DNA from: Caulobacter sp.
Lineage (GTDB): Bacteria > Pseudomonadota > Alphaproteobacteria > Caulobacterales > Caulobacteraceae
Length of the DNA stretch: 64,000 nt
Reading direction: 5' to 3'
NCBI GenBank assembly: GCA_031415995.1
Contig: JANOSS010000105.1
Coordinates: 14,089 to 78,088, forward strand
The position numbers and the translations under genes are program-made. A model generated the notes under the pieces. It was not told the DNA's origin and made no database searches. It saw nothing but the letters and a program-made list of their open reading frames with translations. Below are positions 11,996-43,285 of this stretch, piece after piece (position 1 is the first letter of the stretch; the number at the start of each line of letters is the position of its first letter).

Positions 11996-12054
11996 GGGAT
12001 TTCTTTCCGGGGTCCACGGCGCCGCTTGGGCGTTTCGTGCGTTAGCGCCACAGC

Positions 12055-12072
12055 ACAACAGGAAGATGACGC
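12055..12072 (-). promoter_or_regulatory. Possible Pho box upstream of phoD
   Basis: Minus strand GCGTCAT-CTTC-CTGTTGT, 11-bp periodicity resembling CTGTCAT-N4-CTGTCAT; second half weak. Confidence 0.35.
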
Positions 12073-12381: not shown

Positions 12382-12393
12382 GCGCCGAGACTT

Positions 12394-12425
12394 CTGCTCT
12401 GCCCGGCCAAGGCCGGGCAGAGCAG
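12394..12425. terminator. Strong hairpin between convergent genes
   Basis: ctgctctgcccggcc-aa-ggccgggcagagcag, 15-bp perfect inverted repeat. Confidence 0.7.
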
Positions 12426-12435
12426 TTATCATTGC

Positions 12436-18264: not shown

Positions 18265-18354
<90 letters not shown>

Positions 18355-18580: not shown

Positions 18581-18592
18581 TGGTCTATACCA
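18581..18592. promoter_or_regulatory. PhnR/PhnF-type operator, site 1
   Basis: TGGTCTATACCA, identical to site 4; lies downstream of the phnR stop. Confidence 0.7.
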
Positions 18593-18658: not shown

Positions 18659-19378
18659 TCAACGCACGCGGATATCGACGCTGATCTTGAGGGCGTCATG
18701 TCGCCAGTGCTCGCGGTCGAACTCGACCACGCGCCCCTGTGCATTGTAGCAGGTGCGCTCCACGCTGAGCCCAGGCAGGCCCGACTTGACCCGCAGGGCT
18801 TCGGCTTCACCCAGCGTCAGGGCGCAGGGCCGCATGTCGACCTTGTTGCGCGCGACGCCGATGCCGTAGACCGATTTCAGAACGCTGGTCAGCGAGCCGT
18901 CGAGATCGTGCTCCATAAGACCTGGCGCCAGGGAGGCGTCGACGACGATGCTCTCGATCAGCACGGCCCGGTCATCGATCGAGCGCCGGCGGCGGATCCA
19001 GTACATCGGCGCGCCAACGGGGCGTGAAAAGATCTGCGCCAGCATGCCGTCGCAGGCGATCTCGACCTTGCTGAGCGTCTCGGTCGCCGGCCGCCGCCCT
19101 TGCGCCTCGACATAGGACATGAAGCCCTCCCAGCGGGTCGGGTCATAGACCACCGGCGGCGGGGAAACGTACCAGCCGCTGCGGTCCTTTCGATAGATCA
19201 GCCCCTCGGCCTCAAGCTGAAACAGGGCCTCGCGAACGGTGCCCCGCGCCACGCCGCCGCCGACCTGCAACTGGCGCTCTGACGGCAGCCGTTCGCCAGC
19301 CTTCAGTTCGCCACTGACGATCCGCACGGCGATACCGTCGCGGACTCCAAGATAATGGAGAGTGTCGGACTGATGCAT
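18659..19378 (-). CDS. phnR: GntR/HutC family regulator with UTRA domain, PhnR-like
   Basis: LPSERQL, GLIYRKDRSGWYV, YDPT, DLDGSLT and WRHDALKISVD match Salmonella PhnR as recalled. Confidence 0.85.
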   Translation of the reverse strand: MHQSDTLHYLGVRDGIAVRIVSGELKAGERLPSERQLQVGGGVARGTVREALFQLEAEGLIYRKDRSGWYVSPPPVVYDPTRWEGFMSYVEAQGRRPATETLSKVEIACDGMLAQIFSRPVGAPMYWIRRRRSIDDRAVLIESIVVDASLAPGLMEHDLDGSLTSVLKSVYGIGVARNKVDMRPCALTLGEAEALRVKSGLPGLSVERTCYNAQGRVVEFDREHWRHDALKISVDIRVR

Positions 19379-19503: not shown

Positions 19504-19537
19504 TTGCCAAGCATAAGCCGATTTTGGTATATACCAA
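19504..19537 (+). promoter_or_regulatory. Sigma70-type promoter with operator site 2 over the -10
   Basis: TTGCCA (19504-19509), 16-bp spacer, GGTATATA inside the perfect palindrome TTGGTATATACCAA (19524-19537). Confidence 0.8.
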
Positions 19538-19560: not shown

Positions 19561-19716
19561 ATGACCACCCACCTTCGCACACGCGGCGACGACCACGGGC
19601 ACAATCCAACCCCGAGCTCAGCGGGCGGCCCGCTGCCGGCCCAGCGCCTGGTCGCCCCTCTGGAAACGGAGCGGAAAAGCCGCACCGACCCCAGCATCGG
19701 ACGGCGGCTGCTGTAA
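19561..19716 (+). CDS. 51-aa small ORF (leader peptide or scar of a deleted gene)
   Basis: AGGAGG RBS 7 nt before ATG, first ORF after the operator; MTTHLRTRGDDHGHNPTPSSAGGPLPAQRLVAPLETERKSRTDPSIGRRLL. Confidence 0.45.
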   Translation: MTTHLRTRGDDHGHNPTPSSAGGPLPAQRLVAPLETERKSRTDPSIGRRLL

Positions 19717-19757: not shown

Positions 19758-20342
19758 ATGATGACGACACGTCCTGCGGCCGATGCTTTCGTGGCCGAAC
19801 TCGCCGATCTCTTCGCCCGACTGGGCGGCCTGCGCTACGGGGAAGACGTCAGCCAGCTGGAGCACGCGCTGCAGACGGCGCATCATGCCAAGGTCGACAA
19901 CGCGCCGCCCGCCATGATCGTCGCCGCCCTGCTGCATGACGTAGGCCACCTGATGCAGAGGGCCGGCGAACACGCCGCCGACCTTGGCATCGATACGCGC
20001 CACGAGCACATCAGCGCCGGCTATCTGGCGCGGGCGTTCGGCCCGGCGGTGACAGAGCCGATCCGCCTTCACGTGGCGGCCAAGCGCTACAGGGTGGCCG
20101 TGGACCCCGCCTATTTCGCCCGCCTCAGCAAGGCGTCCCTGCAGAGTCTGGCTCTGCAGGGCGGCCCGATGCGTGAGGCCGAGATCGAGGCGTTCCTGGC
20201 CGAGCCGGCGGCGCAAGCCGCCCTGCGACTGCGCGGCTACGACGAAGCGGGCAAGGCCCAGGACGCCGAGGTGGCCGGTTTCGAGGCCTATCACGACCAT
20301 CTTCGAGATCAGATCGATCGCGCGGACGAAGTTTCAGTCTGA
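19758..20342 (+). CDS. phnZ: PhnZ/TmpB-like HD-domain diiron oxygenase (oxidative C-P cleavage)
   Basis: RYGE, QLEHALQ, ALLHDVGH, RHE, LHVAAKRY, SLALQGGPM and LRGYDEAGK; all PhnZ-type ligands present. Confidence 0.85.
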   Translation: MMTTRPAADAFVAELADLFARLGGLRYGEDVSQLEHALQTAHHAKVDNAPPAMIVAALLHDVGHLMQRAGEHAADLGIDTRHEHISAGYLARAFGPAVTEPIRLHVAAKRYRVAVDPAYFARLSKASLQSLALQGGPMREAEIEAFLAEPAAQAALRLRGYDEAGKAQDAEVAGFEAYHDHLRDQIDRADEVSV

Positions 20343-20412
20343 TCGCGAAGCCACGCCAGGGCCGCGACAAGCCGCTTCTCGTGCGCTGCGGGCTGTATCT
20401 GCGAGCGGCGGT

Positions 20413-20530
20413 CTTGAGCGTTTTCCGATAAGTGTGAAACGGTTATCGGTTCGAAAAACGCTCTAAACTTCTGATTTGGAGCCCTTTTCGCCCGGCCCTG
20501 ATGAAGCCATCAGGTCGGAAAGGGCTCTAG
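20413..20530 (+). repeat. CIR/Bru-RS-like intergenic repeat, copy 1
   Basis: Two tandem hairpins bounded by (T)AGAGC..GCTCTA; near-identical to 45550-45668 and, reversed, 49100-49217. Confidence 0.9.
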
Positions 20531-21471
20531 ACCTCGTCTGAGACCAGATGCTGCAAGACGCGTTTCTCGAGCACCAGCAGCGCGCTGGCGTTGTTGGTGC
20601 GCATGACCAGACCTGCGGCGAGCGGCCTGACGGCCTCGTGTACGGCGCGAGCCAGGCGCAGGAAGTCTGATCGCCCCCGTCCTGCGGCGCCATGCAAGGC
20701 GCAGAGCTGGCGCCAGTCGGATACAAAGTCCTCCAGCAGCATGCTGAACCGCGCAGCCCGGACCCTGGCTTCGGCGGTATCGGCAGCGAGCGCCAGTTCC
20801 GCGCGCAGATCGTCGACCAGCAGTTGCACTTCAGCGGCAGGCATCACCGGCGTGCGCTGGTCACCCTCGGTAAGCAAACTGGGACGCATCCCGGGATCCC
20901 AGGCCACCGTCCGCCATTGGGCGCGCGGCGGCGGCTGTCCACGGACGAATTGCCAGAAGGCCGCTGTGCCGCTGGTGTCCGCGACGAGATGGATGCGCTC
21001 GGCGCTGGCCCTGTTTTCCACATGGTGCGGGCGCCAGTTATCGAAGATCCAGGCTTCGCCAGCGGCCATGTGCACCGATTGCCCGTCGCAGTGAAAGGCG
21101 ACCTCCGGCCAGGTGAAGACCGGAATGTGCAGCCGCACCCGCGTATGCCAGTGGTAGTTGATATCGGCGTGCTCGGGCACGCTCGCGCCTGGGGCCAGGC
21201 GCATCAGCCGTGAGCGGCTCCAGACCACGCCAAAGGCCGCCAGGGCCTGGGTTGTATAGGGCATGGCCTCGAGCCAGCGCGTTGGCAGCATCTGCCCATG
21301 GACCGAGTCCGTCTCAGCCCCGCCCGCGCTGATCAACCGCGCCGCACTGTTGCCGGGCAAGCGGTCCGGGTGTGACGTCCAGGCTTCGTCTGGCAAGGCC
21401 GCGACCTCAGCCTGCAAACGCCCGACGTCGAAGAGCAGGGGGAGGTGGAAGAAGGGGCGTGAAAGCCGCAT
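20527..21471 (-). CDS. Aspartyl/asparaginyl beta-hydroxylase family Fe(II)/2OG oxygenase with C-terminal helical extension
   Basis: RSRLMRLAPG, PEHAD, RLHIPV, GEAWIFDNWRPHHVEN, RIHLVAD (HxD..H triad). Confidence 0.85.
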   Translation of the reverse strand: MRLSRPFFHLPLLFDVGRLQAEVAALPDEAWTSHPDRLPGNSAARLISAGGAETDSVHGQMLPTRWLEAMPYTTQALAAFGVVWSRSRLMRLAPGASVPEHADINYHWHTRVRLHIPVFTWPEVAFHCDGQSVHMAAGEAWIFDNWRPHHVENRASAERIHLVADTSGTAAFWQFVRGQPPPRAQWRTVAWDPGMRPSLLTEGDQRTPVMPAAEVQLLVDDLRAELALAADTAEARVRAARFSMLLEDFVSDWRQLCALHGAAGRGRSDFLRLARAVHEAVRPLAAGLVMRTNNASALLVLEKRVLQHLVSDEV

Positions 21472-21474
21472 GGG

Positions 21475-23406
21475 TCAGGCCTTGTAGCTGGCGAGCGCGT
21501 CACCCAGCCCGTCCCGCAGAGGCGCTAGCCATTGCTCGTAAGGCCGCCACTGCCCGAGGCCATCACGGCCGATGGGCTGGCGCACCTGCTCTGAACTGGG
21601 CGTGCGCACGCTGCGCTGGGTCTCGTGGAAAGCCAGGCAGGCCGGCTCAAAGGGCAGCCTGCAACCCTCCAGCATACGCTGTACGCTGTCTTCAAGGTCC
21701 TCGACCACATCCTCGTACGCCACCTTCAGCACCCGCCCCGGCAGCACCTCGCCCCAGTGCCTCATGAGGTCGAGATAGGAGCGATAGTGACGGGCGAGAT
21801 GATCCATGCCGTAGGTGAATTCCTGGTTGGTGGTCCCAAACAGCTGCTTGAGGTTGCTGAAGCAGCACGCCATGGGCTCGCGACGCACATCGATGATTGT
21901 CGACCGCGGCAGGATGAGATGGATCAGGCCGATGTGCCAGAAATTGTTGGGCATCTTGTCGATGAAGACGGCCTTCCCCAGCCTGCGATAGGTGCGGGTT
22001 TCGGCCAGAAAGCGCGCGCCGAGCGCCCGGGCGTCCTGCGCGGTAAGGCGCAGCAGGGCCTCGGGATCCAGCGGCAAGCCGCAATCAGGATCGCGGCCGC
22101 AGAGCTCGCCTGCATACCGGTCGATTTCTGTCAGCTCCTGCGTGCCTTCAACCTGGGAATGGGAGGCCAGGATCTGCTCGATCAAGGTTGACCCCGAACG
22201 CGGCAACCCCACGATAAAGATGGGTGCCGGATCGGCCAGACCCCAGTCAGCGCGCGCGGCAAAGACTTCGGCGGTGAAGACCTGTTTCAGTCGCAGGACG
22301 CAGGATTCCGCGACCTCGGGGCGATATCGGCTGGAGACAGCGCGGATCGCATTGCCGCGATCGTAATATTGCCAGGATGATGCGTAGTCTGCCCGGTCCT
22401 CCAGCGCCTTGCCCAACGCAAAACAGAGATAGACGCGGTCCATGTCCTGGACGGTCGGCTGGGCTTGCGCAGCGCGCAGGCGCGCGATGTCATCGTCGGT
22501 GAAGCGGTAGGTCTTGAGGTTGGCCAGGCTAAACCAGGCCACGCCGTAGTCTGGCCTCGCCGCCAGGGCGGCGCGATAGTCCGCAATGGCGTCCTGTTGC
22601 CGGCCCGTGACCTTCAGGGCGTTCGCCCGCCAAAGACGCAGGTCAGCGACTTCCGCCCCCAGGAGGGCTGGGCTGGCCAGCAGCCGTCCATAGAGATCAA
22701 TCAGCGGCTCATGGTCGCCCAGAGCGATGCAGGCCGCGCCGTACTGCTTGAGATACTGGCGATTGTCGGGGTCGTGTCCGAGCAAGTGCTCGGCCTCCTG
22801 CCGCGCCTGCAGGGGCTTTTGCTGCTGCAAGAGCACCATGGCGTAGTCGAGGCGCGCAGCGTGATAGTCCGGGGCGCGATCAAGCACAGACTTCAGCAAC
22901 GCCTCGGCCTCGCCAGGCGCCCCGCTCGCCATGCAGATACGCGCCAGCAGGCGAAGGGCGCCGACGTTTCCGCCATCCGTGTACAGATAATCACGGATGA
23001 CCTCCTCGGCCGAGGACAGATCGCCGTCGGCAAGCAGGCTGCTGGCCGCCACCACCGCCGGCGGGAGCTGCCTCAGCATCGCCAGATGCTGTTCGGCCGT
23101 GGCCGCCTGGGCCGTATCGCCGACCATGCGGTAGAGCTGTTCCAGCATGTCCCAGCTCGCCGGCAGGGTCGGGTTGAGGCGCACGGCCTCCCGCAGCGCC
23201 TCGATGGCGGCCGGCGCATCGCCAAGCACCACATGGCAGTGGCCGCGCTCCTGATACAGGCGGCTGAACCCGGGATCCAGTTCCTGGAGCCGCGCGAGGC
23301 TGGCCAGGGCTTCCGCGATGCGTTGGCCCGACCGCAGTTCCCTGGCTTCCTGCAACAGCGCGTCGCGATCGCGAGACGGGGGGCTGGAACTCTCGGAGGG
23401 CGTCAC
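21475..23406 (-). CDS. TPR-repeat sulfotransferase
   Basis: Several TPRs; PIFIVGLPRSGSTLIEQIL PAPS-binding loop; IDKMPNNF; VRTPSSEQVRQPI. Confidence 0.9.
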   Translation of the reverse strand: MTPSESSSPPSRDRDALLQEARELRSGQRIAEALASLARLQELDPGFSRLYQERGHCHVVLGDAPAAIEALREAVRLNPTLPASWDMLEQLYRMVGDTAQAATAEQHLAMLRQLPPAVVAASSLLADGDLSSAEEVIRDYLYTDGGNVGALRLLARICMASGAPGEAEALLKSVLDRAPDYHAARLDYAMVLLQQQKPLQARQEAEHLLGHDPDNRQYLKQYGAACIALGDHEPLIDLYGRLLASPALLGAEVADLRLWRANALKVTGRQQDAIADYRAALAARPDYGVAWFSLANLKTYRFTDDDIARLRAAQAQPTVQDMDRVYLCFALGKALEDRADYASSWQYYDRGNAIRAVSSRYRPEVAESCVLRLKQVFTAEVFAARADWGLADPAPIFIVGLPRSGSTLIEQILASHSQVEGTQELTEIDRYAGELCGRDPDCGLPLDPEALLRLTAQDARALGARFLAETRTYRRLGKAVFIDKMPNNFWHIGLIHLILPRSTIIDVRREPMACCFSNLKQLFGTTNQEFTYGMDHLARHYRSYLDLMRHWGEVLPGRVLKVAYEDVVEDLEDSVQRMLEGCRLPFEPACLAFHETQRSVRTPSSEQVRQPIGRDGLGQWRPYEQWLAPLRDGLGDALASYKA

Positions 23407-24032
23407 CGCGCGGCGCCGGCCAGCAGAAACGGCTCCAGCCAGCTGGGTTCCGGCTGGTCGGCGTCATAGTACTCGAAGATCAGATGGACGCGGTCGGTAT
23501 CACCGTCGTTGCGCACCCAGTGTGGACCCAGGTTGTTGACCTCCACCGCCTCGCCCGGTGGGAAATGGTGTTCACCGCCGCCGAAGAAGGACACCACCTG
23601 GGGATTGGTCGACAACGGCACATGGATCTTGTGCGGCCATTTCGCGGCGGGGTTGGCGTCGATATGAGGGTGGATCACCCCGCCCGGCGGCATCCTTGCC
23701 AACATCACTCGAGGAAACACTCCGCGCGCATAGCCATAGTCGCGGACGGCCTGAGCCAGCACCGGCTCCAGCAATCCGCGCCAGTCGGGCCAGGCCGCGC
23801 GATCGTGCGAACTGCGCCAGTCGCGAGGACCGTCGATAAACCGGAAAACGATGTGGCGGGTCGCGTCCAGCACCTCAAACCTGTTGGGCTTGCCCGCGTT
23901 TTCCGCAGCCCAGACGTCCGCGGCAATCTCCAGAACGGCCGCCTGCAGCGCGGCGATGTCGACCGGCCCGAGCTTGCGGACGCCGGTGGTCTTGCGCGGG
24001 TTGGCGGCAGGCGCAAAAGGGGTAGCGTTCAT
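23403..24032 (-). CDS. Aspartyl/asparaginyl beta-hydroxylase family Fe(II)/2OG oxygenase
   Basis: RVMLARMPPGG, HPHID, KIHVPL, NNLGPHWVRN, DRVHLIFE. Confidence 0.85.
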   Translation of the reverse strand: MNATPFAPAANPRKTTGVRKLGPVDIAALQAAVLEIAADVWAAENAGKPNRFEVLDATRHIVFRFIDGPRDWRSSHDRAAWPDWRGLLEPVLAQAVRDYGYARGVFPRVMLARMPPGGVIHPHIDANPAAKWPHKIHVPLSTNPQVVSFFGGGEHHFPPGEAVEVNNLGPHWVRNDGDTDRVHLIFEYYDADQPEPSWLEPFLLAGAAR

Positions 24033-24667
24033 CGCATATCTTCGAAGCTGTAGCCGAACTGTTCCAGATCCTGGGCGTAGCGGGCGGCGACGCCGTCGAT
24101 CAGGTCCTGGTCGTAATAGTGACGATAGTCACCGTGATGGCTGCCGTTGACGCGGTCCAGAGGGCGGGAGGGAATGCCGATGCGCGCGCAGATCGCATCA
24201 TACGACCCCTGCATATCCTCGACGTGGCCGATGTGGTCGGCCATCAGGGTCTTGCCGTCCTCGCCCACCAGAAGCGAGGCTTGTGGCTGGAACAGGATGT
24301 GGTGTTCCGGCGGCTTCTCGAAAAGAAAGTGCCGCATGACCGCCTGCGGTTGCTGCTCAAAGACGTCACCGCCCCGCAGCATGAAGGCGCAGTACGAGAC
24401 GAAGCGATCGAACGGATTGCGCACGAAGGCGAACTTGAAATAACCGCTGAAGGCCGCCTCGCCGAGATAGGGGCGCACCTGCTGCAGAGACAGGTGGCCA
24501 TGCCGGATCGCCGCCAGATCCTCCCAAGGGAAGCGCTTGTCGACGAACAGCCCGACCTGCTCGAGGTCGCCGTCGCTCAGGTGTTCGCGCAGGGCCTGTC
24601 GCACGGCATGGGTCCCGGTCTTGGGCACGGCGGCGAAGATGAAGCGATGGCTGTGGGAAACAATCAT
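24029..24667 (-). CDS. Sulfotransferase family 2 protein
   Basis: FIFAAVPKTGT 5'-PSB loop and FAFVRNPFDRFVSY 3'-PB motif. Confidence 0.85.
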   Translation of the reverse strand: MIVSHSHRFIFAAVPKTGTHAVRQALREHLSDGDLEQVGLFVDKRFPWEDLAAIRHGHLSLQQVRPYLGEAAFSGYFKFAFVRNPFDRFVSYCAFMLRGGDVFEQQPQAVMRHFLFEKPPEHHILFQPQASLLVGEDGKTLMADHIGHVEDMQGSYDAICARIGIPSRPLDRVNGSHHGDYRHYYDQDLIDGVAARYAQDLEQFGYSFEDMR

Positions 24668-24684
24668 GTTTCAGGGACACCCAG

Positions 24685-24718
24685 AAAAAGCGCCCCACCT
24701 CTCAGGAAGGCGGGGCGC
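24685..24718 (-). terminator. Intrinsic terminator between the TBDR and the sulfotransferase
   Basis: Minus strand GCGCCCCGCC-N9-GGTGGGGCGC-TTTTT. Confidence 0.75.
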
Positions 24719-24741
24719 AAAGTCTACATTAAGCGGTGGCC

Positions 24742-27528
24742 TTAGAACTTGTAGCTAAGCCCAACCATATAGGTCGAGCCGCTCTGGTTCTGGTTGTAGA
24801 GGTACTGGTTCTGGCCCCAGAACTGCGTGTCCTCCTGGTTCGTCAGATTGATACCGTTCAGCGTGAGCTGCAGTTGATCGGTGACGTTCAGGAAGGCCGA
24901 GGCGTCCACATAGGTCGACCCCTCGAAGCCGCGCGTGCTGGCGCTCATGACAGTGGCGCTGTTCCCGGAGAACCAGCGATTGCGGTGGCTCATGGAACCA
25001 CGGACACCCCAGCGCGCGGTCTCGTAGTAGAGCGTGGCGTTGTAGCTGGTGTTCGAGATGCCGGTGAGCGCCTCGTCAGCGTCCACATAGGTGTAGTTGG
25101 CCACCGCACCCAGCTTGTCGAACGGCGCCGGCAGGAACGAGAATTGGCCCTGTGCGGCCAGTTCCACACCGGTCAGCTTCTTGGTGCCGGCGATATTGAC
25201 CGGCATCGAGAACTCTTTGACGATCGTATTGGCCGTGGCGCCCGGGATCGTGGTGAACGGGACGCCCGTCTGGCTGAAGGGGATGTTCTCGAGGGTCTGT
25301 GAGCCGATAAAGTTCTTGATGCTCTTCTGGAACACGCTGGCCGAGAGCAGGCCGTCCACGCCGAAATAGTACTCCGCCGCGAAGTCCAGCGTGTTGTCCT
25401 TGTAGGGCTCAAGGTTTGGATTGCCGCGCGACGCCGAGATGTCGCCGCTATCCGAATTCTGGAACGCACTGCCCTTGGCCGCCATCGAACCCAGGCCCGG
25501 ACGGTTGAGGTTCTGCGTGGCGGAGAAGCGCACCAGCACGTCCGGAGCCACCTCCAGCACCGAGTTCATGGCCGGCAGCACGCCTGAGTAGCTGCCTTCG
25601 ACGTCCGTCGTGCCCAGATAGGCGTAGCTGTCGCCCTGGATCCAGCCGGTGCTGTGGGTGTCAGTCTGATAGCCCCGCAGGCCGATGTTACCGCGGAAGC
25701 GCTTGCCGAAGAGGTCGGTGTCCCAGTCCGCCTGCACATACTCGGAGAAGGTCTTTTCCGAGGTCTCGTAGACGTTCTCGATGTCCTGCAGCGCGCCGCC
25801 CGTACCGTCCTTGTTGGGACCGAAGCGGTGGTACTCGTTGTACTTCGCAAAGGCCTTGGCGTAGTCGCCGACCAGCCACGACCCGAAGCTGTTGGTGAAC
25901 ACCGAGGTGACGTCGGCAACGGCCGTCCCGCGCATCTTGGTCCGGGTTCCATTGACGTTGTCGTCATAGAACAGGTCGATGCCGCCTTGCGTGAACTTGT
26001 GATAGGCCACGCCGGCCCGCAGGGTCCAAACCTCGTTCAGCACGTATTGGGCGTCCAGCACGCCTTCCTGCAGTTCCGACTGATTGTTGAAGCCGCGATA
26101 GTAGAACGAGTCCATCGCGTAGTTGGCGGGGTTGGTTCTATCCCAGCCCGGATACTGGAACGTCGCCGACCGGCCATCGCTGCCATAGTTGGCGATCAGA
26201 TTGCCCTTGGCGCGCATATAGAGCTTGTCGTCATAGGGCGTCTCGTAGGTCGACTTCTCGTAGCCGACATGTCCGTCGATCGTGAGGCGATCCGAGAGGT
26301 CCCACTTGCCGGTCAGCGCCACCTGGTCGAAGTTGTTTTCGTTCAGCGAGCGGCGGTGCTCGCTGCCGAAGGTGGTGCCCGTGACATCGGTCATGGTCAC
26401 GTAGTTGCTGTTGTCCCAGGCCAGGTTGTTGATGACGGACGCCTTCTGGAAGGCGATAGGCCAGACCGTGCTGGCCGCAGTATCGAACGCAACCGAGCCC
26501 TTGGACGCGAGCGGCCGCGTGGCGAGATGCAGTTCGTCGCGATGCGTGGTGTACTCGCCGTGCAGCACATCAAGCGTCAGCAGCAGGTTGTCCACCGGAC
26601 GCCACTGCACAGCTCCCGTCAGACCGAGGCGCTCCTGCTGCGAGTTCCAGGATGAGATGCGGTTGCCATCCGCAAAGTACAGGTCGCCGGACTGGAACTT
26701 GGTCTGCTGCGCAGCGCTTAGCTTGGAGATGTCCAGACCCTTGGCGACCAGGCCCTTCATGGCCGCCGCATCCGGTTTCGTGTAGTTATAGGTATTGTGG
26801 CCCTGTTCCGTGGTCTCACGCTTTGAATAGGCGACCGAGAACGCCACGCCAAACTTGTTGTCCCAGTTCTGGCTGAACAAGGCCGCGATGCGCGGCTGCG
26901 CGTCCTCGGTGTATTCGTTGGTTCCGAGCTTAAACGACACCGCACCCTTGGAGCCCGACGCGTAGTCAAACGGCTTGCCGGTGAACAGGCCGACCGTGCC
27001 GGCCATGCCGCCCTCGTTTTGGGCCGCCTGGAAGGTCTTTTCGACCTCCACGCGGGAGAACAGTTCCGAGGCGAAAATGTTGAAGTCGAAAGCGCGATCG
27101 CGTGAACGCTGGCCGCGGCTGTCCTGGGCGGAATCGACGTTGCCCAGCACCTCCATGCCATTGAGCTGCACACGGGCGAAATCTGGACCCAGGCCCCGCA
27201 GCGAGATCCGCCGGCCTTCGCCCGCTTCCCGGGTGATCTGCACGCCCGGCAGGCGTTGCAGCGATTCAGCCAGGTTGAGTTCCGGGAACTTCGCCATGTC
27301 CTCGGCGACGATCACGTCCTTCTGGATGACCGAATCTCTCTTGATGGCGCGCGCATCGCTGAGCGACTTCCGGTAGCCGGTGACGACAACTTCGTCGACC
27401 AGATCGCCAGAAGCCTGCTGCGCGAGCGCGGCCGATGAATGCGCGCCAGCGACCAGCACCGCTACGGTAGCTAGCAAAAAGCTCTTGAGATGCGGGCGGG
27501 TAGCCCGAACAGGATATCGCTTAAACAT
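24742..27528 (-). CDS. TonB-dependent receptor of the island
   Basis: Signal peptide, DEVVVTG TonB box, NLAESLQRLPGV plug, C-terminal YKF; AAGGA RBS before ATG 27528. Confidence 0.95.
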   Translation of the reverse strand: MFKRYPVRATRPHLKSFLLATVAVLVAGAHSSAALAQQASGDLVDEVVVTGYRKSLSDARAIKRDSVIQKDVIVAEDMAKFPELNLAESLQRLPGVQITREAGEGRRISLRGLGPDFARVQLNGMEVLGNVDSAQDSRGQRSRDRAFDFNIFASELFSRVEVEKTFQAAQNEGGMAGTVGLFTGKPFDYASGSKGAVSFKLGTNEYTEDAQPRIAALFSQNWDNKFGVAFSVAYSKRETTEQGHNTYNYTKPDAAAMKGLVAKGLDISKLSAAQQTKFQSGDLYFADGNRISSWNSQQERLGLTGAVQWRPVDNLLLTLDVLHGEYTTHRDELHLATRPLASKGSVAFDTAASTVWPIAFQKASVINNLAWDNSNYVTMTDVTGTTFGSEHRRSLNENNFDQVALTGKWDLSDRLTIDGHVGYEKSTYETPYDDKLYMRAKGNLIANYGSDGRSATFQYPGWDRTNPANYAMDSFYYRGFNNQSELQEGVLDAQYVLNEVWTLRAGVAYHKFTQGGIDLFYDDNVNGTRTKMRGTAVADVTSVFTNSFGSWLVGDYAKAFAKYNEYHRFGPNKDGTGGALQDIENVYETSEKTFSEYVQADWDTDLFGKRFRGNIGLRGYQTDTHSTGWIQGDSYAYLGTTDVEGSYSGVLPAMNSVLEVAPDVLVRFSATQNLNRPGLGSMAAKGSAFQNSDSGDISASRGNPNLEPYKDNTLDFAAEYYFGVDGLLSASVFQKSIKNFIGSQTLENIPFSQTGVPFTTIPGATANTIVKEFSMPVNIAGTKKLTGVELAAQGQFSFLPAPFDKLGAVANYTYVDADEALTGISNTSYNATLYYETARWGVRGSMSHRNRWFSGNSATVMSASTRGFEGSTYVDASAFLNVTDQLQLTLNGINLTNQEDTQFWGQNQYLYNQNQSGSTYMVGLSYKF

Positions 27529-27547
27529 GAGTGTCCTTCGCCCCAAC

Positions 27548-27559
27548 TGGTATGAACCA
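27548..27559. promoter_or_regulatory. PhnR-type operator, site 3 (variant)
   Basis: ACTGGT-ATGA-ACCAGT about 20 bp upstream of the TBDR start; same TGGT-N4-ACCA spacing. Confidence 0.55.
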
Positions 27560-27775
27560 GTCAGACTAAAGCAGCCAGCGACGACACCCGCGTGACAGCG
27601 CCGTCCCGCACGACGCAATTTGTCCGCTCCGCGCCGCACGTCAGGTCGATTGTGGCCCTGCGGGGGTGACTTTAGGGAATATTGGGCGCTCTATCGGCCC
27701 TGTCGCCCGGCGCATTGACGCTCCTCAACACCCTGACGTCGCGGCTCATTTGGCCAACGGGTCACAGTCGCAAAA

Positions 27776-27809
27776 CTGCCAACTTCTCGTGATATTTGGT
27801 CTATACCAA
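27776..27809 (+). promoter_or_regulatory. Promoter with operator site 4 over the -10
   Basis: CTGCCA, 16-bp spacer, GGTCTATA inside TTGGTCTATACCAA (27796-27809); same geometry as 19504-19537. Confidence 0.8.
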
Positions 27810-27834: not shown

Positions 27835-28014
27835 ATGAGTCCAGCGGACAAGCCGGCCCTGAAGGCCTTGCCTCAGACGCGCGGACCATCTCGGCCGCCG
27901 GCGGCGACGCGCAGCAGCGCCGCCGCCGGCGCGGTGATCGACGCCGCCGCCAGACATCCCTTCGCGCTGGCTGCACTTCCCATTCACAGCCCTGATTCAT
28001 GGAGTACGTTATGA
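27835..28014 (+). CDS. 59-aa upstream ORF overlapping the phosphatase start
   Basis: ATG 25 nt after the operator; TGA overlaps ATG 28011; no clear RBS. Confidence 0.25.
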   Translation: MSPADKPALKALPQTRGPSRPPAATRSSAAAGAVIDAAARHPFALAALPIHSPDSWSTL

Positions 28015-29675
28015 AGAATCCGATCCGGGTGATCCCGCTTCTCCTTGCGCTCCTCGCCGGCATGGCAGGCGCGGCCGGCGCCTATGCCGGCGAGGCCCGG
28101 AAGGCAGGCCATGTGATCATCATCGGCGTGGACGCCCTGAGCCCCGACGGCGTGATGAAGGCCGATACCCCCACCCTGCACGACATGATGAAGCGCGGCA
28201 GCTGGAGCATGCATGCCCGCGGCGTGCTGCCCACCACGAGCGGCGCCAACTGGGCGTCCATCATCGGTGGCGCAGGACCAGAGCAGCACGGCGTGACGAG
28301 CAACGACTGGCAGGTGGGCGAGTTCAATTTCCCCGCTTCGGTGACCGGCTCCGGGGGCTTCTTCCCATCCATCTTCCAGGTGCTCACAGATCAGAAGCCG
28401 GAATGGGAACTAGGCTCGATCTATAACTGGGACGGCTTCGGCAATCTCTACGACCACCGGTTCGTGGACTATGACGTCCACGGCAAGGATGAGGACGAAA
28501 CCACCGCGCTGGCGGTCAATTACATCAAGACCAAGCGGCCTGAGTTCCTGTTTGTGCATTTGGATCATGTCGATCACGCCGGACATGCCCATGGCCACGG
28601 CACGCCGCTGTTTTACGAGGCCGTGGCCAAGGCCGACAAGCTGATCGACAAGATCCGCCAGGCCACGGTGGAGGCCGGCATCGCGGACGAGACGGTGATC
28701 CTGGTCACCTCCGACCATGGCGGCGTGGGCAAGGGGCACGGCGGAGAAAGCCTGGCTGAACTTGAAATTCCCTGGATTGCCTATGGCAAGGACATCAAGC
28801 CGGGCCAGCTTGATCTGCCCATCAACACGTTCGACACCCCCGCCACCGCCGCCTGGCTGCTGGGCGCCAAGATCCCCTACGCCTGGCTAGGGCGCGCCGT
28901 GACGCCAATCCTGAAGGGCGAAAAGGCGCCAGAACAAGCCTATCGCTCCAGCAGCTTTTACGCCTCTCCGGTGATCGAACCGGCAAGCGACGGGAATGCG
29001 CCTGCAGGCGGGCTGTTCATCAACCGGACGGCGAAGATGACCATCCGCAACCCCAACGCCGCCGGACAGGTCCGCTACACGCTGGACAGTTCAATCCCCA
29101 CGGTCGGATCCCCGCTTTACACCGGCCCTGTCGAGATCGCTCGCAACACGATCGTGCGGGCCACGCTGTTCGTTTCCGGCCAAGCCGCCAGCGTTCCCGC
29201 CACGGCCTACTTCCGCATCCTCGACCTGAAAGGTCCCGAGGCGCGCGGGGTGAACTACAAGGTGTATCTGCTGCCGGAGACGCCGGTGCGGCTGCCCGAT
29301 TTCTCCCGGCTCGAGCCCGCAACCGCCGGCACATCCCATGAACTGACCATCGACGGGATGACGCTCCCGCGAGGCGACAGCGTGGCGGTGGTCTTCGAAG
29401 GGTATCTCCACATCGCGGCGGCAGGCGCCTACAGTTTCGCGCTCGCCTCCGACGACGGCAGCAAGCTCTATATCGACGGCAAACAGATAGTCGACAACGA
29501 TGGCGACCACGGCGTGGTTACGGCGAACGGCAACATCGACCTGCAGCCCGGCAAGCATGCGATCAGGGTTGAGTGGTTCAATGGCGGCGGCGGTGCCTGG
29601 TTGGGCGCATACTTCGAAGGCCCAGGCATTCCTCGCCAGTTCATCGATCCAAACCTGCTGACGCCGCAGGAGTGA
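28011..29675 (+). CDS. Secreted alkaline-phosphatase superfamily (NPP/phosphodiesterase-like) enzyme with chitobiase-C/Fn3-like and PA14 domains
   Basis: Sec signal; IIGVDAL, PTTSGANW (Ser nucleophile), HLDHVDHAGH, VTSDHG; QVRYTLDSSIP; FALASDDGSKLYIDG and HAIRVEWFNGGGG. Confidence 0.85.
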   Translation: MKNPIRVIPLLLALLAGMAGAAGAYAGEARKAGHVIIIGVDALSPDGVMKADTPTLHDMMKRGSWSMHARGVLPTTSGANWASIIGGAGPEQHGVTSNDWQVGEFNFPASVTGSGGFFPSIFQVLTDQKPEWELGSIYNWDGFGNLYDHRFVDYDVHGKDEDETTALAVNYIKTKRPEFLFVHLDHVDHAGHAHGHGTPLFYEAVAKADKLIDKIRQATVEAGIADETVILVTSDHGGVGKGHGGESLAELEIPWIAYGKDIKPGQLDLPINTFDTPATAAWLLGAKIPYAWLGRAVTPILKGEKAPEQAYRSSSFYASPVIEPASDGNAPAGGLFINRTAKMTIRNPNAAGQVRYTLDSSIPTVGSPLYTGPVEIARNTIVRATLFVSGQAASVPATAYFRILDLKGPEARGVNYKVYLLPETPVRLPDFSRLEPATAGTSHELTIDGMTLPRGDSVAVVFEGYLHIAAAGAYSFALASDDGSKLYIDGKQIVDNDGDHGVVTANGNIDLQPGKHAIRVEWFNGGGGAWLGAYFEGPGIPRQFIDPNLLTPQE

Positions 29676-29861
29676 GGCGTTTGAGGCGGCCCGGTTCCCG
29701 TAGAACGGCATCTGAAGAATTCAGCGAGACCCAGAGATCGTCCGGGCCTTCGCTGATCCTTGCGATTTGCTTTGGAAGCGGAGACCTCTAGGACTCTCCG
29801 GGTTCGCAACCAGCGCGAATCCGGACGCCTGCGGCAGACACCGCCCAATGCAGAGGCTTGC

Positions 29862-31061
29862 GTGACCGACAAAATCAGCGCCGAGGACTGGCTGCAGCAG
29901 GCGGTCATCGCCAGCAACCAGGGTCTGCACCCCCAAGCGCGCGAGGCTTTCAGTCGCGCGCTGTCGATCGACCCGACGCTGGGCGAGGCGATGCTGGGCC
30001 TTGGCCTCTCGCATATGGCGACGCGGGACTTCAGTGACGCCGTCATGCCTCTTCGTCAGGCGGCCGCGACGCCCGACGCGCCGGCGATCTGGCACGCCTG
30101 CCTGGCCCAGGGCCTCTATATGACCGGTGATTTCGCCGGGTGCGCGGAAGCCTTTGAACGCGCCGCGGCCCTGGAACCTCTGGCGACCAACGCCCGCCTG
30201 ACCCATGCCCGGGCCCGCACCTTCGCCAGCATGATCCAGGGCTCTGTGGACGATGCCCTGGCCCGCTATCCAGCCCTGGCCGGCGATGAAGCCGAGGACA
30301 TCGAGGTCATCGCCCGGGAGGCCTTTGCGATCCTCGGCGTCTTTGGACATGCCCCCGCAGCGGCGGCGGTCGGCGCCTGGCGGCTGGCCCGAAGCCCGGA
30401 CGATCAGATCCAGGCCTATCTGCTGCAGGCGGTCAGCGGGGCGGCGGTCGATCGCGCGCCGGCCGCCTATGTCGAGGCGCATTTCGACCGCTTCGCCGAC
30501 AATTTCGACCACCAGCTGGTCGATCTGCTGAACTATCGCGCTCCAGAGCGGATGGCGCAGTTGATGGAAGGTCACGCCGGCCCGTTCGCCGAGATCCTCG
30601 ACCTGGGCTGCGGCACCGGACTTTCGGCCCCCGCCCTCGCGCGCTTTGGCGGTCGCCTGACCGGCGTCGATCTCTCCGGCGGCATGCTGGACAGGGCAAG
30701 GGCGCGCGGCGGTTATGACCTGCTGGTCCAGGCCGAGGCCGTCGCGTTCCTCGACCAGCATCCGGCCGCCTTCGACCTGGTCTTCGCAGCCGACATGGTG
30801 ATCTATTTCGGCGACCTGTCGGACCTGTTCCGGGCAGCCGCAAAGGCGCTGCGCCCGGGCGGCTTTTTCACCCTGAGCACGGAGGTGGGAGCGGAGGGCT
30901 GGACGTTGCTGAGCTCGGGACGCTTCTCTCACGCGGACGCCTACGTCGCCCAGGCGGCGGGCCCTGAGTTTGCGCTGCTGGACCAGGAACCCATCGCCCT
31001 GCGCCACGAGGGCACGGCGCCCGTCAGGGGAACGCTGCACGTGTTCCAGCGGACCGCCTGA
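29862..31061 (+). CDS. TPR-containing SAM-dependent methyltransferase
   Basis: N-terminal TPRs; YVEAHFDRFADNFD, ILDLGCGTG, GVDLSGGML, GRFSHAD; GTG start after AGAGG. Confidence 0.85.
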   Translation: MTDKISAEDWLQQAVIASNQGLHPQAREAFSRALSIDPTLGEAMLGLGLSHMATRDFSDAVMPLRQAAATPDAPAIWHACLAQGLYMTGDFAGCAEAFERAAALEPLATNARLTHARARTFASMIQGSVDDALARYPALAGDEAEDIEVIAREAFAILGVFGHAPAAAAVGAWRLARSPDDQIQAYLLQAVSGAAVDRAPAAYVEAHFDRFADNFDHQLVDLLNYRAPERMAQLMEGHAGPFAEILDLGCGTGLSAPALARFGGRLTGVDLSGGMLDRARARGGYDLLVQAEAVAFLDQHPAAFDLVFAADMVIYFGDLSDLFRAAAKALRPGGFFTLSTEVGAEGWTLLSSGRFSHADAYVAQAAGPEFALLDQEPIALRHEGTAPVRGTLHVFQRTA

Positions 31062-31066
31062 CCCTT

Positions 31067-32779
31067 ATGTCCGCCATCGCCCTGCCCCATCCACTCATCG
31101 CCCAGGCGCGCGACCTTCTCAATCGGGGCCAGGTCGAACCGGCCCTGGCGACCGCAAGGCGGCGGCTGGCAGAGGCCGCCGATGACATCGACGCCCTGGA
31201 GATCCTGGCCCTGGTCTGCCAGCAGCGTGGACAGGCGGTCGAGGCCGTCAGCCTTCTGGAGCGGATCATCGCCCTCTCGCCGACCCTGGACTGGCCGCGC
31301 GACGACCTGGCGATCCTGCTGGCGGGGTTGGGCCGCAAGGCCCAGGCCGAGGCCGTCGTCCGCGCCGGCCTGGCGCTGAACGCCAGCAACCCCCAGGCCC
31401 TCGCCATGCTGGGAACCCTGCTGACCGAGCGGCGCGACCTGCCCGGCGGCGAGGCGGCGTTCCGAAGCGCCCTGGCGCTGGTGCGCGACCATCCGCCTAC
31501 CCAGACAGCCCTGGCAGCCAATCTGATCGAGCAGGGCAAGCTTGAGGCGGCCGAACCCCTGCTGGCCCGCGCTGACCAGTTGGCACCGGGCGACGGCGCG
31601 ACCCTGGCCCACTGGTCGCGATTGCGCGAGGCCATGGGCGACCTGCCCGCCAGCCGCGCCCTGCTGGACCGCGCCGCGGCGGCGGGGTTCGACGTCACCC
31701 TGCGCCGCGCCGTGCAGTTGGGCCGCGAGCAGCGTCACGCCGAAGCCCTGGCCGTGATCGAGGCCGTCCCCGGTCGCTTAGGCGGCGACGCCCTGCTGGA
31801 AAGCGGTCGCCTGAAGGAAAGGCTGGGACGTCCTGTCGAGGCCTTCGCTGACTTTGTCGAGGGCAAGGCCAGGCTGGCTGCGCGTGACGGCCTGGCCTAT
31901 GACGGCGGCGGCGTGGCCCGCGAGTTCGACGCCCTGGCGCGGCTGGTCGAGACCTGCGCCCCCCTACCCGGCGCGGCGCCGCACGAGGGACCGCAGCCGG
32001 TGTTCGTGTTCGGGTTTCCGCGTTCGGGCACCACCCTGGTCGAGCAGATGCTGTCGAGCCATTCGGCGATCGCGGCCGGCGGCGAGCTGCCGTTCGTCGC
32101 CGAGATGGTCTCGGCGCTGGAGAGCCAGTTTGGCGGCCTTTCGGCGCTGTGGACGCCCGGCGTCGCCGAGGCCCTGCGTGACCTCTATCTCGACCGCGCC
32201 AAAGCGTTCGGGCTGATGGACACCGGCAGGCCCCTGTTCACCGACAAGATGCCGCTCAGCGAAGTCTGGACGCCGGTGATCCGCGCGGCCTTCCCGCAGG
32301 CCAAGCTCATCCGCATGATCCGCCACCCGCTGGATACGGCTGTGTCAATGCTGTCGCACAACCTGACCCATGGCGAGTTCTGCGGCTATCGGATCGAGGA
32401 CATCGCCACGCACATGCGGGCCGTCCATGCCTTGACGGGACGCTATGCCAAGGCGCTGGACGATACGGCGCTGGGGGTCCGCTACGAGGACCTGGTGGCC
32501 GATCCGGAGACCTGGACGCGGCGGCTCCTGGACCATCTCGACCTGCCGTTCGAGCCGGCTTGCCTTCGCTTCCACGAGAACCGCCGCTATGCGCCAACGC
32601 CGTCCTACGCTCAGGTCAGCGAGCCGCTGAACGACCGCTCGATCGGGCGGTGGCGGCAGTATCGCGAGCGGTTGGCACCGCAGGTGGCGGCGCTGGCGGC
32701 CATCACTATGAACCTCGGCTATCCTTCTCCCCTTGCGGGAGAAGGATCAGGCAGACAGCAGCCTGATCGTATCGGCTAG
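31067..32779 (+). CDS. TPR-repeat sulfotransferase
   Basis: TPRs; PVFVFGFPRSGTTLVEQML; FTDKMPL; APTPSYAQVSEPL. Confidence 0.9.
   Translation: MSAIALPHPLIAQARDLLNRGQVEPALATARRRLAEAADDIDALEILALVCQQRGQAVEAVSLLERIIALSPTLDWPRDDLAILLAGLGRKAQAEAVVRAGLALNASNPQALAMLGTLLTERRDLPGGEAAFRSALALVRDHPPTQTALAANLIEQGKLEAAEPLLARADQLAPGDGATLAHWSRLREAMGDLPASRALLDRAAAAGFDVTLRRAVQLGREQRHAEALAVIEAVPGRLGGDALLESGRLKERLGRPVEAFADFVEGKARLAARDGLAYDGGGVAREFDALARLVETCAPLPGAAPHEGPQPVFVFGFPRSGTTLVEQMLSSHSAIAAGGELPFVAEMVSALESQFGGLSALWTPGVAEALRDLYLDRAKAFGLMDTGRPLFTDKMPLSEVWTPVIRAAFPQAKLIRMIRHPLDTAVSMLSHNLTHGEFCGYRIEDIATHMRAVHALTGRYAKALDDTALGVRYEDLVADPETWTRRLLDHLDLPFEPACLRFHENRRYAPTPSYAQVSEPLNDRSIGRWRQYRERLAPQVAALAAITMNLGYPSPLAGEGSGRQQPDRIG
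32722..32746. repeat. REP-like hairpin or terminator remnant directly after the nagE stop
   Basis: tccttctccc-cttgc-gggagaagga; read as PSPLAGEG in the sulfotransferase frame. Confidence 0.65.
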
Positions 32780-34528: not shown

Positions 34529-34531
34529 CGC

Positions 34532-37063: not shown

Positions 37064-37083
37064 GGGGTTACTCTCTGGAAAAA

Positions 37084-39375: not shown

Positions 39376-39556
39376 GGACGGGCTCTCACGGACACGGTGG
39401 GCGCGGCAAAAAGTGGGCGGAGCGACGAAGCGCCCCGCCCCAGCTCCATGCTTGCAGGTCAGGAGGATCGATTTGGCGGCGATGCGAAGCGGACCGGTCA
39501 TCAGGTGATCCTGAACCATGCCGCCCCCGATGCAATCGTCGCCTGAAAGAAGAAGA

Positions 39557-39590
39557 TCGGGACTTCCGGAGAGGGGGCCGGAAGTCCCGA
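39557..39590 (-). terminator. Intrinsic terminator after the nag TBDR
   Basis: tcgggacttccgg / ccggaagtcccga stem followed on the minus strand by tcttcttcttt. Confidence 0.75.
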
Positions 39591-39596
39591 CGCGCC

Positions 39597-42272: not shown

Positions 42273-42430
42273 AACTCGGCTTCTCCCCATTTCGCCGGAC
42301 CTAGGCCCGGAGCCGAACCCCAAGCCCAATGTGGTACCAATTATCTACGGACGTCCGCAGATCGCGGTACTTCTCAGGCCTCGGAGCCAGACTGTGACGA
42401 AAATTTGTCGGATGACAAGTCCAAAAAGAA

Positions 42431-42469
42431 ACCAATTGCAGACCATGTTCTTATTGGTATGAAAATGGT
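42431..42469. promoter_or_regulatory. Dyad-symmetric array of GntR (NagQ-type) half-sites
   Basis: ACCA 42431, ACCA 42442, TGGT 42455, TGGT 42466, symmetric about 42450; extra TGGTACCA at 42332-42339. Confidence 0.6.
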
Positions 42470-42528
42470 CATATGTTATCGAGACGACCAAGTGATGGCG
42501 TTGATTTGTGGGGGAGGCTGATTTGACC

Positions 42529-43272: not shown

Positions 43273-43285
43273 AGGAAGACCCATC

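Follow-up and report, generated by a model that had tools for sequence, protein, structure and literature searches.

A recurrent cassette of a TonB-dependent receptor, two sulfotransferases and two PF05118 oxygenases in a predicted phosphorus-scavenging island of Caulobacter

We analysed a 64,000-nt stretch of DNA from Caulobacter sp. (assembly GCA_031415995.1, contig JANOSS010000105.1, positions 14,089 to 78,088, forward strand; G+C about 65%), hereafter the window, whose proteins share 91-99% identity with their counterparts in Caulobacter sp. ErkDOM-E (locus L001). Its subject here is a cassette of five genes, in which a TonB-dependent receptor (TBDR) is followed by a small sulfotransferase of the type dependent on 3'-phosphoadenosine 5'-phosphosulfate (PAPS), named ST2, an oxygenase of the aspartate/asparagine beta-hydroxylase family (AspH209), a sulfotransferase with tetratricopeptide repeats (TPR-ST) and a second oxygenase (AspH314). 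The five open reading frames (ORFs) given in the initial annotation, together with their overlaps and gap, were reproduced exactly by our ORF calls and translations (Table 1), and their reading frames are backed by the G+C content of codon positions. ST2 and AspH209 overlap by 4 nt (ATGA, 24029-24032), as do AspH209 and TPR-ST (GTGA, 23403-23406), while 3 nt separate TPR-ST from AspH314 (21472-21474). Identical 4-nt overlaps recur in the independent gene calls of three other loci (L087, L088 and L093), in line with the tight coupling that had been proposed for the four enzyme genes. A longer TBDR reading frame from a GTG at 27639 is unlikely, as the conserved promoter elements described below would fall within that extension.

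Table 1 Coordinates of the cassette, its control elements and the surrounding genes. Positions refer to the window.
Feature	Position	Strand	Remarks
TBDR (TIGR01782 Xanthomonas/Caulobacter subfamily)	24742-27528	-	First gene of the putative unit
ST2, small PAPS-type sulfotransferase	24029-24667	-	212 aa; PF03567
AspH209, Fe(II)/2-oxoglutarate oxygenase of the Asp/Asn beta-hydroxylase family	23403-24032	-	209 aa; PF05118
TPR-ST, TPR repeats (about 380 aa) and sulfotransferase domain	21475-23406	-	643 aa; PF13469
AspH314, oxygenase with C-terminal extension of about 145 aa	20527-21471	-	314 aa; PF05118
Pho-box-like direct repeat CTGTCAC-GCGG-GTGTCGT	27581-27598	-	About 70 nt upstream of the TBDR ATG
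-10-like element TTTAGT	27565-27570	-	10 nt after the Pho-box-like repeat
HutC/GntR-type palindromic operator CTGGTTCATACCAG	27547-27560	-	TBDR 5' leader
Operator TGGTCTATACCA	27797-27808		NPP side of the divergent TBDR/NPP intergenic region
Operator TGGTATATACCA	19525-19536		Divergent region between phnR and (plc remnant)-phnZ
Orphan operator TGGTCTATACCA	18581-18592		Downstream of phnR; position of the DUF5690 promoter in other loci
Terminator-like GC-rich hairpin with T tract	24685-24718	-	Between TBDR stop and ST2 start
Hairpin, candidate bidirectional terminator	20411-20468		End of the unit in the window, between convergent AspH314 and phnZ-like genes
PhnR-like GntR/UTRA regulator (HutC subfamily)	18659-19378	-	PF00392 and PF07702
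51-codon remnant of a phosphocholine-type phospholipase C gene	19561-19716	+	Behind operator and strong Shine-Dalgarno sequence
PhnZ/TmpB-like HD-domain oxygenase	19758-20342	+	TIGR03276, 202 bits, just under cut-off 214.6
Exported NPP-type phosphodiesterase with CHB_HEX_C and PA14 domains	27999-29675	+	Signal-peptide-like N-terminus
TPR-methyltransferase, lineage-specific accessory	29760-31061	+	Divergent from TBDR
Second TPR-PF13469 sulfotransferase, lineage-specific accessory	31067-32779	+	Paralogue of TPR-ST, 28% identity, 2e-39

Pfam and NCBIfam matches well above threshold agree with the family assignments made earlier. The receptor contains a plug (PF07715) and a barrel (PF00593), scores 611 bits against TIGR01782 (cut-off 310) and carries a DEVVVTG motif after its signal peptide. 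The N-termini of the four enzymes were inspected and none resembles a signal peptide, as expected for the cytoplasmic enzymes that the initial annotation had described, and all four keep their cofactor motifs intact, as it had also stated. In ST2 these are PKTGT, HGH and RNPFDRFVS (R83...S91). Only H58, R83 and P85 are invariant in an alignment of 48 family members with pairwise identities down to 29%, and the family profile aligns with cytosolic SULT1C3 across the PAPS motifs and the catalytic histidine. Sequence searches of solved structures with ST2 alone and with a profile of its orthologues returned no match; a diverse ST2-family profile gave weak matches to SULT and HS2OST structures. 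TPR-ST combines TPRs with a PF13469 domain (5.6e-45) that contains PRSGST and the 3'-phosphate motif RREPMACCFS, as well as a glutamate that is spaced, by sequence reading, like the catalytic base Glu99 of TPST2. Its sulfotransferase domain weakly matches the protein-tyrosine sulfotransferase 8w5z (1.2e-4) and the CurM sulfotransferase. ST2 and TPR-ST both show the features of PAPS-dependent sulfotransferases and are predicted to catalyse sulfuryl transfer.

At 29% identity, AspH209 and AspH314 are distant paralogues, and each has the HxD...H triad and an arginine. The corresponding motifs are HPHID...PHW...DRVH in AspH209 (PF05118, 8e-10) and EHAD...PHH...ERIH in AspH314 (PF05118, 5e-15). A sequence search of solved structures yielded nothing meaningful for AspH209, and the closest solved relative of AspH314 is the L-proline cis-4-hydroxylase 4p7w (1.9e-5). 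Because this enzyme hydroxylates free proline, the family name does not fix the substrate, and hydroxylation of Asp or Asn in proteins is predicted by family membership only. PF05118 also contains the lipid A hydroxylase LpxO, to which a weak match was obtained. AlphaFold2 models built from shallow alignments (26 sequences, at least 79% identity) reached a mean predicted local distance difference test score of 42.8 for ST2 and 40.6 for AspH314; in the latter low-confidence model the C-terminal extension is helical.

A search with ST2 found 3,574 database relatives. The top 120 of them, with identities of 82% or more, belong to Caulobacter, Phenylobacterium, Sphingobium, Sphingomonas and Rhizomicrobium. 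A genome scan revealed 265 encoding loci, and the best 80 of these were compared together with their 10-kb flanks, which are complete in 56 loci. The order TBDR-ST2-AspH209-TPR-ST-AspH314 is kept in about 70 of the 80 loci across Caulobacterales and Sphingomonadales, with proteins that are 63-92% identical. The earlier remark on similar cassettes in aquatic proteobacteria is borne out, and soil proteobacteria have the cassette as well. Among the 56 loci with full flanks, the TBDR (55), AspH209 (51), TPR-ST (55) and AspH314 (53) are found in this same order, and none of the window's other neighbours is conserved in any of them. The arrangement is not due to chance. TBDR orthologues (65-92% identity) head the cassette in 75 of the 80 loci, and ST2 is 74-88% identical across the two orders. 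One locus lies on a plasmid (L070), and a few are found in metagenome-assembled genomes labelled Rhizobiales, Acetobacteraceae or Gemmatimonadaceae. Between orders the cassette proteins are better conserved than the neighbouring PhnR (56-93%) and PhnZ (43-92%), which fits strong constraint, lateral spread, or both. Cultured carriers include Caulobacter sp. AP07, C. segnis CC215, Brevundimonas intermedia, Asticcacaulis spp., Sphingomonas echinoides and Novosphingobium spp. The sequencing runs that contain the window sequence are DNA metagenomes only, with a freshwater sediment metagenome as the best match; no RNA runs matched.

The region upstream of the TBDR has a layout that is kept across families and orders: CTGTCAC-N4-xTGTCG, about 10 nt, CTTTAAG or TTTAGT, CTGGTYCATACCAG, a G-rich ribosome-binding site and the ATG. 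In PhoB-dependent promoters of E. coli, the Pho box consists of two 7-nt repeats with an 11-nt period, about 10 nt upstream of the -10 element. The repeat in the window agrees with this consensus in sequence, period and position, from which we infer that it is a PhoB site, and a relaxed form of it was detected in 43 of 74 TBDR upstream regions, where about 0.003 would be expected per region. The supplements of a C. crescentus PhoB-regulon study contain no gene names that match the cassette. The palindrome in the TBDR leader has what we take to be the GT-N-TA-N-AC core of the HutC family. The strict palindrome lies within the last 90 nt before the TBDR in 54 of 74 loci. Its form TGGT-N4-ACCA occurs eight times in the window (0.42 expected), including four sites in the cassette locus (at 18581, 19525, 27548 and 27797). 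Across the 80 loci 169 such sites were counted, compared with 10-21 in shuffles, and 120 of them are intergenic, in front of TBDR, DUF5690, phospholipase C (PLC), phnR, NPP, phnZ, pbfD and PhoC-like genes. A further site in the window (TGGTTCCTACCA, 50209-50220), between the ORFs 49311-49784 and 50390-50776, has a centre unlike that of the PhnR-type sites.

The operators and the nearby GntR/UTRA regulator, which scores 236 bits against TIGR03337 (cut-off 296.75), together correspond to a PhnR/HutC-type regulon, and binding of the PhnR-like protein is predicted. The cassette may hence be under dual control, with activation by PhoB and PhnR-type repression that would be relieved by a phosphonate-type effector. 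The initial annotation had pointed out a link to a phosphonate regulator; with the shared operators, the Pho-box-like repeat and the operon fusions described below, this link turned out stronger than was noted.

Between the TBDR and ST2 lies a hairpin with a 12-bp stem that is followed by TTTTT (-33.3 kcal/mol, z = -3.5). Of 77 loci, 73 have a hairpin of at least eight pairs at this position; its stem takes 53 different sequences among them, and a T run follows in 47. The structure is thus conserved, but not the sequence. The ST2 ATG follows the end of the hairpin after a median of 20 nt, which leaves no room for a promoter. We therefore read the hairpin as a putative leaky terminator, attenuator or stabiliser, by which the receptor might be made at a high ratio to the enzymes. 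The TBDR-headed operon of the initial annotation, from TBDR to AspH314, is likewise putative; the hairpin argues for attenuation and the 20-nt spacing against a separate enzyme promoter. The hairpin at the end of the unit folds with a z of about -3.2 on both strands. The same receptor-then-hairpin design is seen elsewhere in the window, where a second TBDR (12436-14784, minus strand) has a perfect GC-rich hairpin (12385-12430; CTGCTCTGCCCGGCC...GGCCGGGCAGAGCAG) behind its stop codon. Downstream on the same strand lies a PhoD phosphatase (10289-12058, minus strand), with a 102-aa plus-strand ORF in between.

Clustering of the flanking ORFs revealed a recurrent set of phosphorus-related genes around the cassette, namely a TIGR03396 phosphocholine-type PLC, PhnR-like and PhnZ-like proteins, PhnX (TIGR01422), a TIGR03364 FAD oxidoreductase, a DUF5690 membrane protein, NPP, a PhoC-like phosphatase and a DeoR regulator. 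At least one phosphorus-acquisition gene lies within 10 kb of the cassette in 51 of the 56 loci with full flanks; PLC is present in 44 and NPP in 17 of the 80 loci. We take the FAD oxidoreductase to be of the PbfD type. PbfD converts 2-aminoethylphosphonate (AEP) and N-methyl-AEP to phosphonoacetaldehyde and forms a demonstrated degradation route together with PhnX (PMC10590968). In nine of 73 loci, and also in L088 and L093, pbfD and phnX come directly after AspH314 in the same orientation, and no gap exceeds 33 nt. The fullest arrangement (L088 and L093) consists of TBDR-ST2-AspH-TPR-ST-AspH-pbfD-phnX, with plc-phnZ on the opposite strand and phnR-DUF5690, and is taken to be ancestral. Known AEP clusters (phnWX; pbfD-phnX) likewise have a PhnR-like regulator, and in many loci pbfD and phnX share the operators of the cassette, in some of them apparently within its operon (PMC10590968). 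In contrast to the cassette loci, known AEP clusters contain no TBDR, sulfotransferase or PF05118 oxygenase, and the window itself has lost pbfD-phnX.

In keeping with this loss, the window is a reduced version of the island. DUF5690, pbfD and phnX are absent from all 64 kb, and only a remnant of plc is left, whose C-terminal 44 or so residues match the ends of PLC in L010, L011, L023, L052 and other loci. The identical remnant and deletion are present in Caulobacter sp. ErkDOM-E. The 51-codon ORF was also considered as a precursor peptide and rejected, since its C-terminus matches PLC C-termini. A tRNA-Ser(CGA) gene (18265-18354) adjoins the orphan operator downstream of phnR, at the place where other loci have DUF5690. 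The island border, with its flanking tRNA gene, may thus have undergone a deletion or rearrangement here.

The PhnZ-like protein matches TmpB (6npa, 8e-32) and PhnZ (4mlm, 3e-26), with conserved His and Asp residues that we take to be the HD-domain metal ligands. The Tyr and Glu positions of substrate contact are both conserved, and do not separate PhnZ from TmpB specificity. In the known pairs PhnY/PhnZ and TmpA/TmpB, a 2-oxoglutarate oxygenase acts upstream of the HD-domain enzyme, of which the window has an intact homologue. The phnZ-like gene adjoins plc, NPP, phnR or AspH314, but unlike in these pairs a TauD-family hydroxylase next to it was found in none of 48 loci, and TauD occurred in only two of 120 other flank gene clusters in a Pfam scan of cluster representatives. 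As there is no TauD-type partner, the PF05118-type oxygenases, whose activity on phosphonates is putative, are the sole candidates for supplying a 1-hydroxy substrate to the PhnZ-like enzyme.

The TPR-methyltransferase and the second TPR-sulfotransferase beyond the NPP gene are restricted to one or two close relatives among the 80 loci. In ErkDOM-E, a TPR-GT41 protein (O-GlcNAc-transferase-like; L001:2958-4898) is encoded between NPP and the TPR-methyltransferase; the window does not have it. Further along, the window contains an N-acetylglucosamine-type locus (32747-45504) with phosphotransferase system EIIBC, a fused EIIA-HPr-EI, a GH20 hexosaminidase and a TIGR01782 TBDR, behind which lie three plus-strand ORFs without annotation; this locus does not lie beside the cassette in other genomes. 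A chemotaxis cluster (CheA, 54113-56362) includes a methyl-accepting chemotaxis protein with a protoglobin domain (59868-61460, minus strand).

Variants of the cassette bear on the question of what the enzymes act on. In Asticcacaulis (L020:13200-15023 and four other loci) the AspH314 orthologue continues into an additional PF13469 domain (fusion protein of 607 aa), which gives these cassettes three sulfotransferase domains each. A pair of ST2 and AspH (214 aa) stands alone in the Lysobacter core genome (L084:10001-11271), between a HlyIII-family gene and prfC, and is widespread there (84 index blocks). More distant homologues of ST2 (43% identity) and AspH209 (49%) occur in the order ST-AspH-ST-AspH in clusters that resemble those for peptides that are made on the ribosome and modified after translation (RiPPs; L081:6032-16636, L086:8123-20636 and L092:378-9040). 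These clusters also encode more sulfotransferases, an HPr-kinase-like 'ScmC', PqqD, Asn-synthetase-like and GT2/GT8 proteins and, in L092, tryptophan halogenases; a precursor peptide was not identified in any of the three. Finally, a rearranged cassette of 59% G+C (L090:516-9613) combines PhyH, an unrelated TBDR, TPR-ST (46% identity), a BCCT transporter, ST2 (47%) and a convergent AspH314-like gene (38.5% over the full length). Its TBDR is again followed by a hairpin, it adjoins an MttB-family methyltransferase, and no phosphorus genes are visible within its 10 kb.

The Asticcacaulis fusion and the movement of ST2 and AspH as a unit into unrelated contexts lend support to the view that hydroxylase and sulfotransferase act on one substrate, and thereby to the hydroxylate-then-sulfate logic of the initial annotation. 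This idea holds up but is not new, as Iyer et al. predicted it in 2010 for neighbourhoods of beta-hydroxylases and sulfotransferases (PMC2938197). The same study described sets of TBDR, halogenase, SapC and JmjC proteins with a predicted siderophore-like role (PMC2938197). These neighbourhoods of alpha- and gamma-proteobacteria share with the cassette the sequence of hydroxylation and sulfation and the tie of tailoring oxygenases to a TonB-type receptor. They differ in that they contain PhyH-methyltransferases, PAPS synthetases and collagen-like or tail-collar proteins, or halogenases and SapC; none of them was linked to control by phosphate or phosphonate, and the five-gene cassette is not among them. 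The literature on sulfotransferase, beta-hydroxylase and TonB cassettes yielded no assigned function, as had been stated earlier, and in the literature searched we found no published functional study of the cassette; a paper on Brevundimonas stalks holds no data relevant to it. While the phosphonate part of the island (PhnR, PbfD-PhnX and the PhnZ/TmpB-like protein) is of kinds that have been described, the cassette is not.

The interpretation that we tentatively place first builds on what the sequences show, from gene content, motifs and synteny to the shared cis-elements, the operon fusions and the fused domains. It puts the five genes at the core of a phosphorus-scavenging island, about 14 kb long and horizontally mobile, by which a solute of the head-group type may be imported, hydroxylated and O-sulfated. 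The cassette would accordingly represent a TBDR-linked tailoring module that is built into a regulon for scavenging phosphonates and phospholipid head groups. The pbfD-phnX fusion, the presence of a phnZ-like gene without its usual partner, the relationship of AspH314 to a free-proline hydroxylase and the BCCT transporter of the rearranged variant all point to a small solute.

In such a system the TBDR unit would need two signals, low phosphate and phosphonate. PhoB would activate transcription from a Pho box that replaces the -35 element, and the PhnR-type HutC repressor would be released from the palindrome, which lies over the predicted start of transcription; a leaky terminator behind the TBDR gene could then lead to much receptor and little enzyme. 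Exported PLC and NPP may free amino or quaternary-ammonium head groups from phospholipids, phosphonolipids or glycans, with AEP, its N-methyl forms or related solutes as candidates. The TBDR would concentrate the nitrogen-containing solute across the outer membrane, and an inner-membrane carrier, possibly DUF5690 in the regulon or the BCCT transporter in the rearranged variant, would pass it on to the cytoplasm. There, the pairs ST2/AspH209 and TPR-ST/AspH314 might hydroxylate C-H bonds and subsequently O-sulfate the new hydroxyls with PAPS. One of the hydroxylations probably provides a 1-hydroxy-phosphonate for the PhnZ/TmpB-like oxygenase, as no PhnY/TmpA-type partner is encoded beside its gene.

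It may be speculated, with less confidence, that sulfation is integral to a new organophosphorus or quaternary-amine pathway that is fed by dedicated TonB-dependent uptake of phosphonate-type compounds; we consider this more specific proposal rather unlikely. Hydroxylation and O-sulfation could install a leaving group for C-N, C-O or C-P cleavage of head groups outside the reach of the known AEP routes, or could yield sulfate-ester surrogates of phosphate esters, comparable to choline-O-sulfate, as a phosphorus-sparing response.

Several points weigh against the scavenging interpretation. To our knowledge, PAPS-dependent sulfation occurs in no phosphorus-scavenging or phosphonate pathway, and a sulfated hydroxyl would be expected to block PhnZ-type chemistry. 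The window has lost plc, pbfD-phnX and DUF5690 and yet keeps the cassette, which is therefore not strictly dependent on them. The Lysobacter ST2-AspH pair is found in neither a transport nor a phosphorus context, and the RiPP-like clusters carry homologues of ST2 and AspH209. The long TPR array of TPR-ST and its TPST-like domain point to a peptide or protein as substrate, and complete uncoupling of receptor and enzymes by the terminator-like hairpin is conceivable. Moreover, transcription, regulator binding and enzyme functions are all predicted from sequence. The role of the sulfate ester is accounted for by neither this nor any of the following models.

Modification of a peptide or protein ranks second and is an unlikely, though serious, alternative. 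According to this explanation the TPR array would dock a polypeptide, the oxygenases would hydroxylate its side chains and the sulfotransferases would sulfate these or tyrosines; the substrate might be a ribosomal peptide, either imported or endogenous, but also the precursor of the TBDR itself or an exported enzyme under the same control, such as the Tat-type PLC, and the phosphorus regulon would merely set the timing. The combination of TPRs with a catalytic domain is reminiscent of OGT and SPINDLY, and the PF13469 domain resembles that of TPST and RaxST, with the phosphosulfate-binding and Glu positions kept. The similarity is weak (E about 1e-4), and in contrast to these systems the genomic context is nutrient uptake. 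FlmG of Caulobacter is a precedent for TPR-directed protein modification, and the TPR-methyltransferase and second TPR-ST nearby, as well as the TPR-GT41 of ErkDOM-E, would fit such a process. The RiPP-like clusters with their PqqD, Asn-synthetase-like, HPr-kinase-like and glycosyltransferase genes also favour a peptide. A similar lasso-type cluster is listed for Pontixanthobacter (PMC10040529), uncharacterised sulfotransferases occur in lasso clusters, and the 2-oxoglutarate oxygenase CanE beta-hydroxylates Asp in a lasso precursor (PMC8498205). However, the cassette has a TPR domain in place of a leader-recognition element, the RiPP-like clusters lack close counterparts of TPR-ST and AspH314, and lasso or RiPP genes are present solely at the three loci with distant homologues. 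The overlapping genes leave no room for a precursor gene inside the cassette, and the partner upstream of the TBDR varies. A precursor, a RiPP recognition element (PqqD), a leader protease or a cyclase was not noticed in the window or among the recurrent flank ORFs, which were screened at sizes of at least 100 aa in one scan and of 230-430 aa in another, above those of PqqD-like proteins and of precursors. The pbfD-phnX operon fusion and the BCCT variant speak for a small solute, and cytoplasmic modification of a Sec substrate would be without precedent.

It is improbable that the enzymes help to make a hydroxylated and sulfated small chelator or scavenger, which would be secreted under phosphate starvation and re-imported through the TBDR in a siderophore-like manner. 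Such a logic of biosynthesis plus receptor has been proposed for the analogous TBDR-halogenase-SapC-JmjC neighbourhoods (PMC2938197) and would explain why the TBDR is always linked to the enzymes. Nevertheless, neither a scaffold synthetase (nonribosomal peptide synthetase, NIS or amide ligase) nor an exporter is conserved in the flanks. The substrate-responsive HutC repressor and the catabolic partners are better explained by uptake, and the carrier encoded in L090 is of an importer type.

Even less probable is a phosphorus-sparing remodelling of the envelope, in which the leftovers of PLC action (diacylglycerol, ceramide or glycolipid) would be hydroxylated and sulfated to form phosphorus-free anionic lipid surrogates. 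It would be in line with the Pho-box-like repeat, the frequent linkage to PLC, the membership of LpxO in PF05118 and the host range of sphingolipid-producing Alphaproteobacteria, and Caulobacter is reported to remodel its lipids under phosphate starvation (PMC6445935). But the enzymes have no evident membrane anchors, the homologues that were found sit in peptide or small-molecule contexts, and the phosphonate-type repressor, the TBDR linkage and the BCCT variant would be left unexplained. A chance neighbourhood of the TBDR and the four enzymes, with no function in common, the hairpin ending TBDR transcription and the enzymes serving some other process, is very improbable: the frequency of this strong hairpin and the existence of the ST2-AspH pair without a TBDR in Lysobacter would agree with it, but the distance to the ST2 ATG is too short for a promoter of its own, and the linkage to a TBDR persists in about 75 of the 80 loci and arose anew, with an unrelated TBDR, in L090.

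Among the major sources of phosphorus in oligotrophic waters and soils are phosphonates and the head groups of lipids. Few catabolic routes for them are known, and the catalogue of these routes is considered largely complete. In the island described here, a module of four enzymes sits among phosphonate genes and in some genomes forms one predicted transcription unit with pbfD-phnX. The many cultured carriers make the system amenable to direct study. Identification of its substrate could provide the hydroxylase that the PhnZ/TmpB-like oxygenase is missing. It could also, for the first time, tie a TonB-dependent receptor to phosphonate-type solutes and give bacterial sulfotransferases a physiological role in nutrient scavenging.

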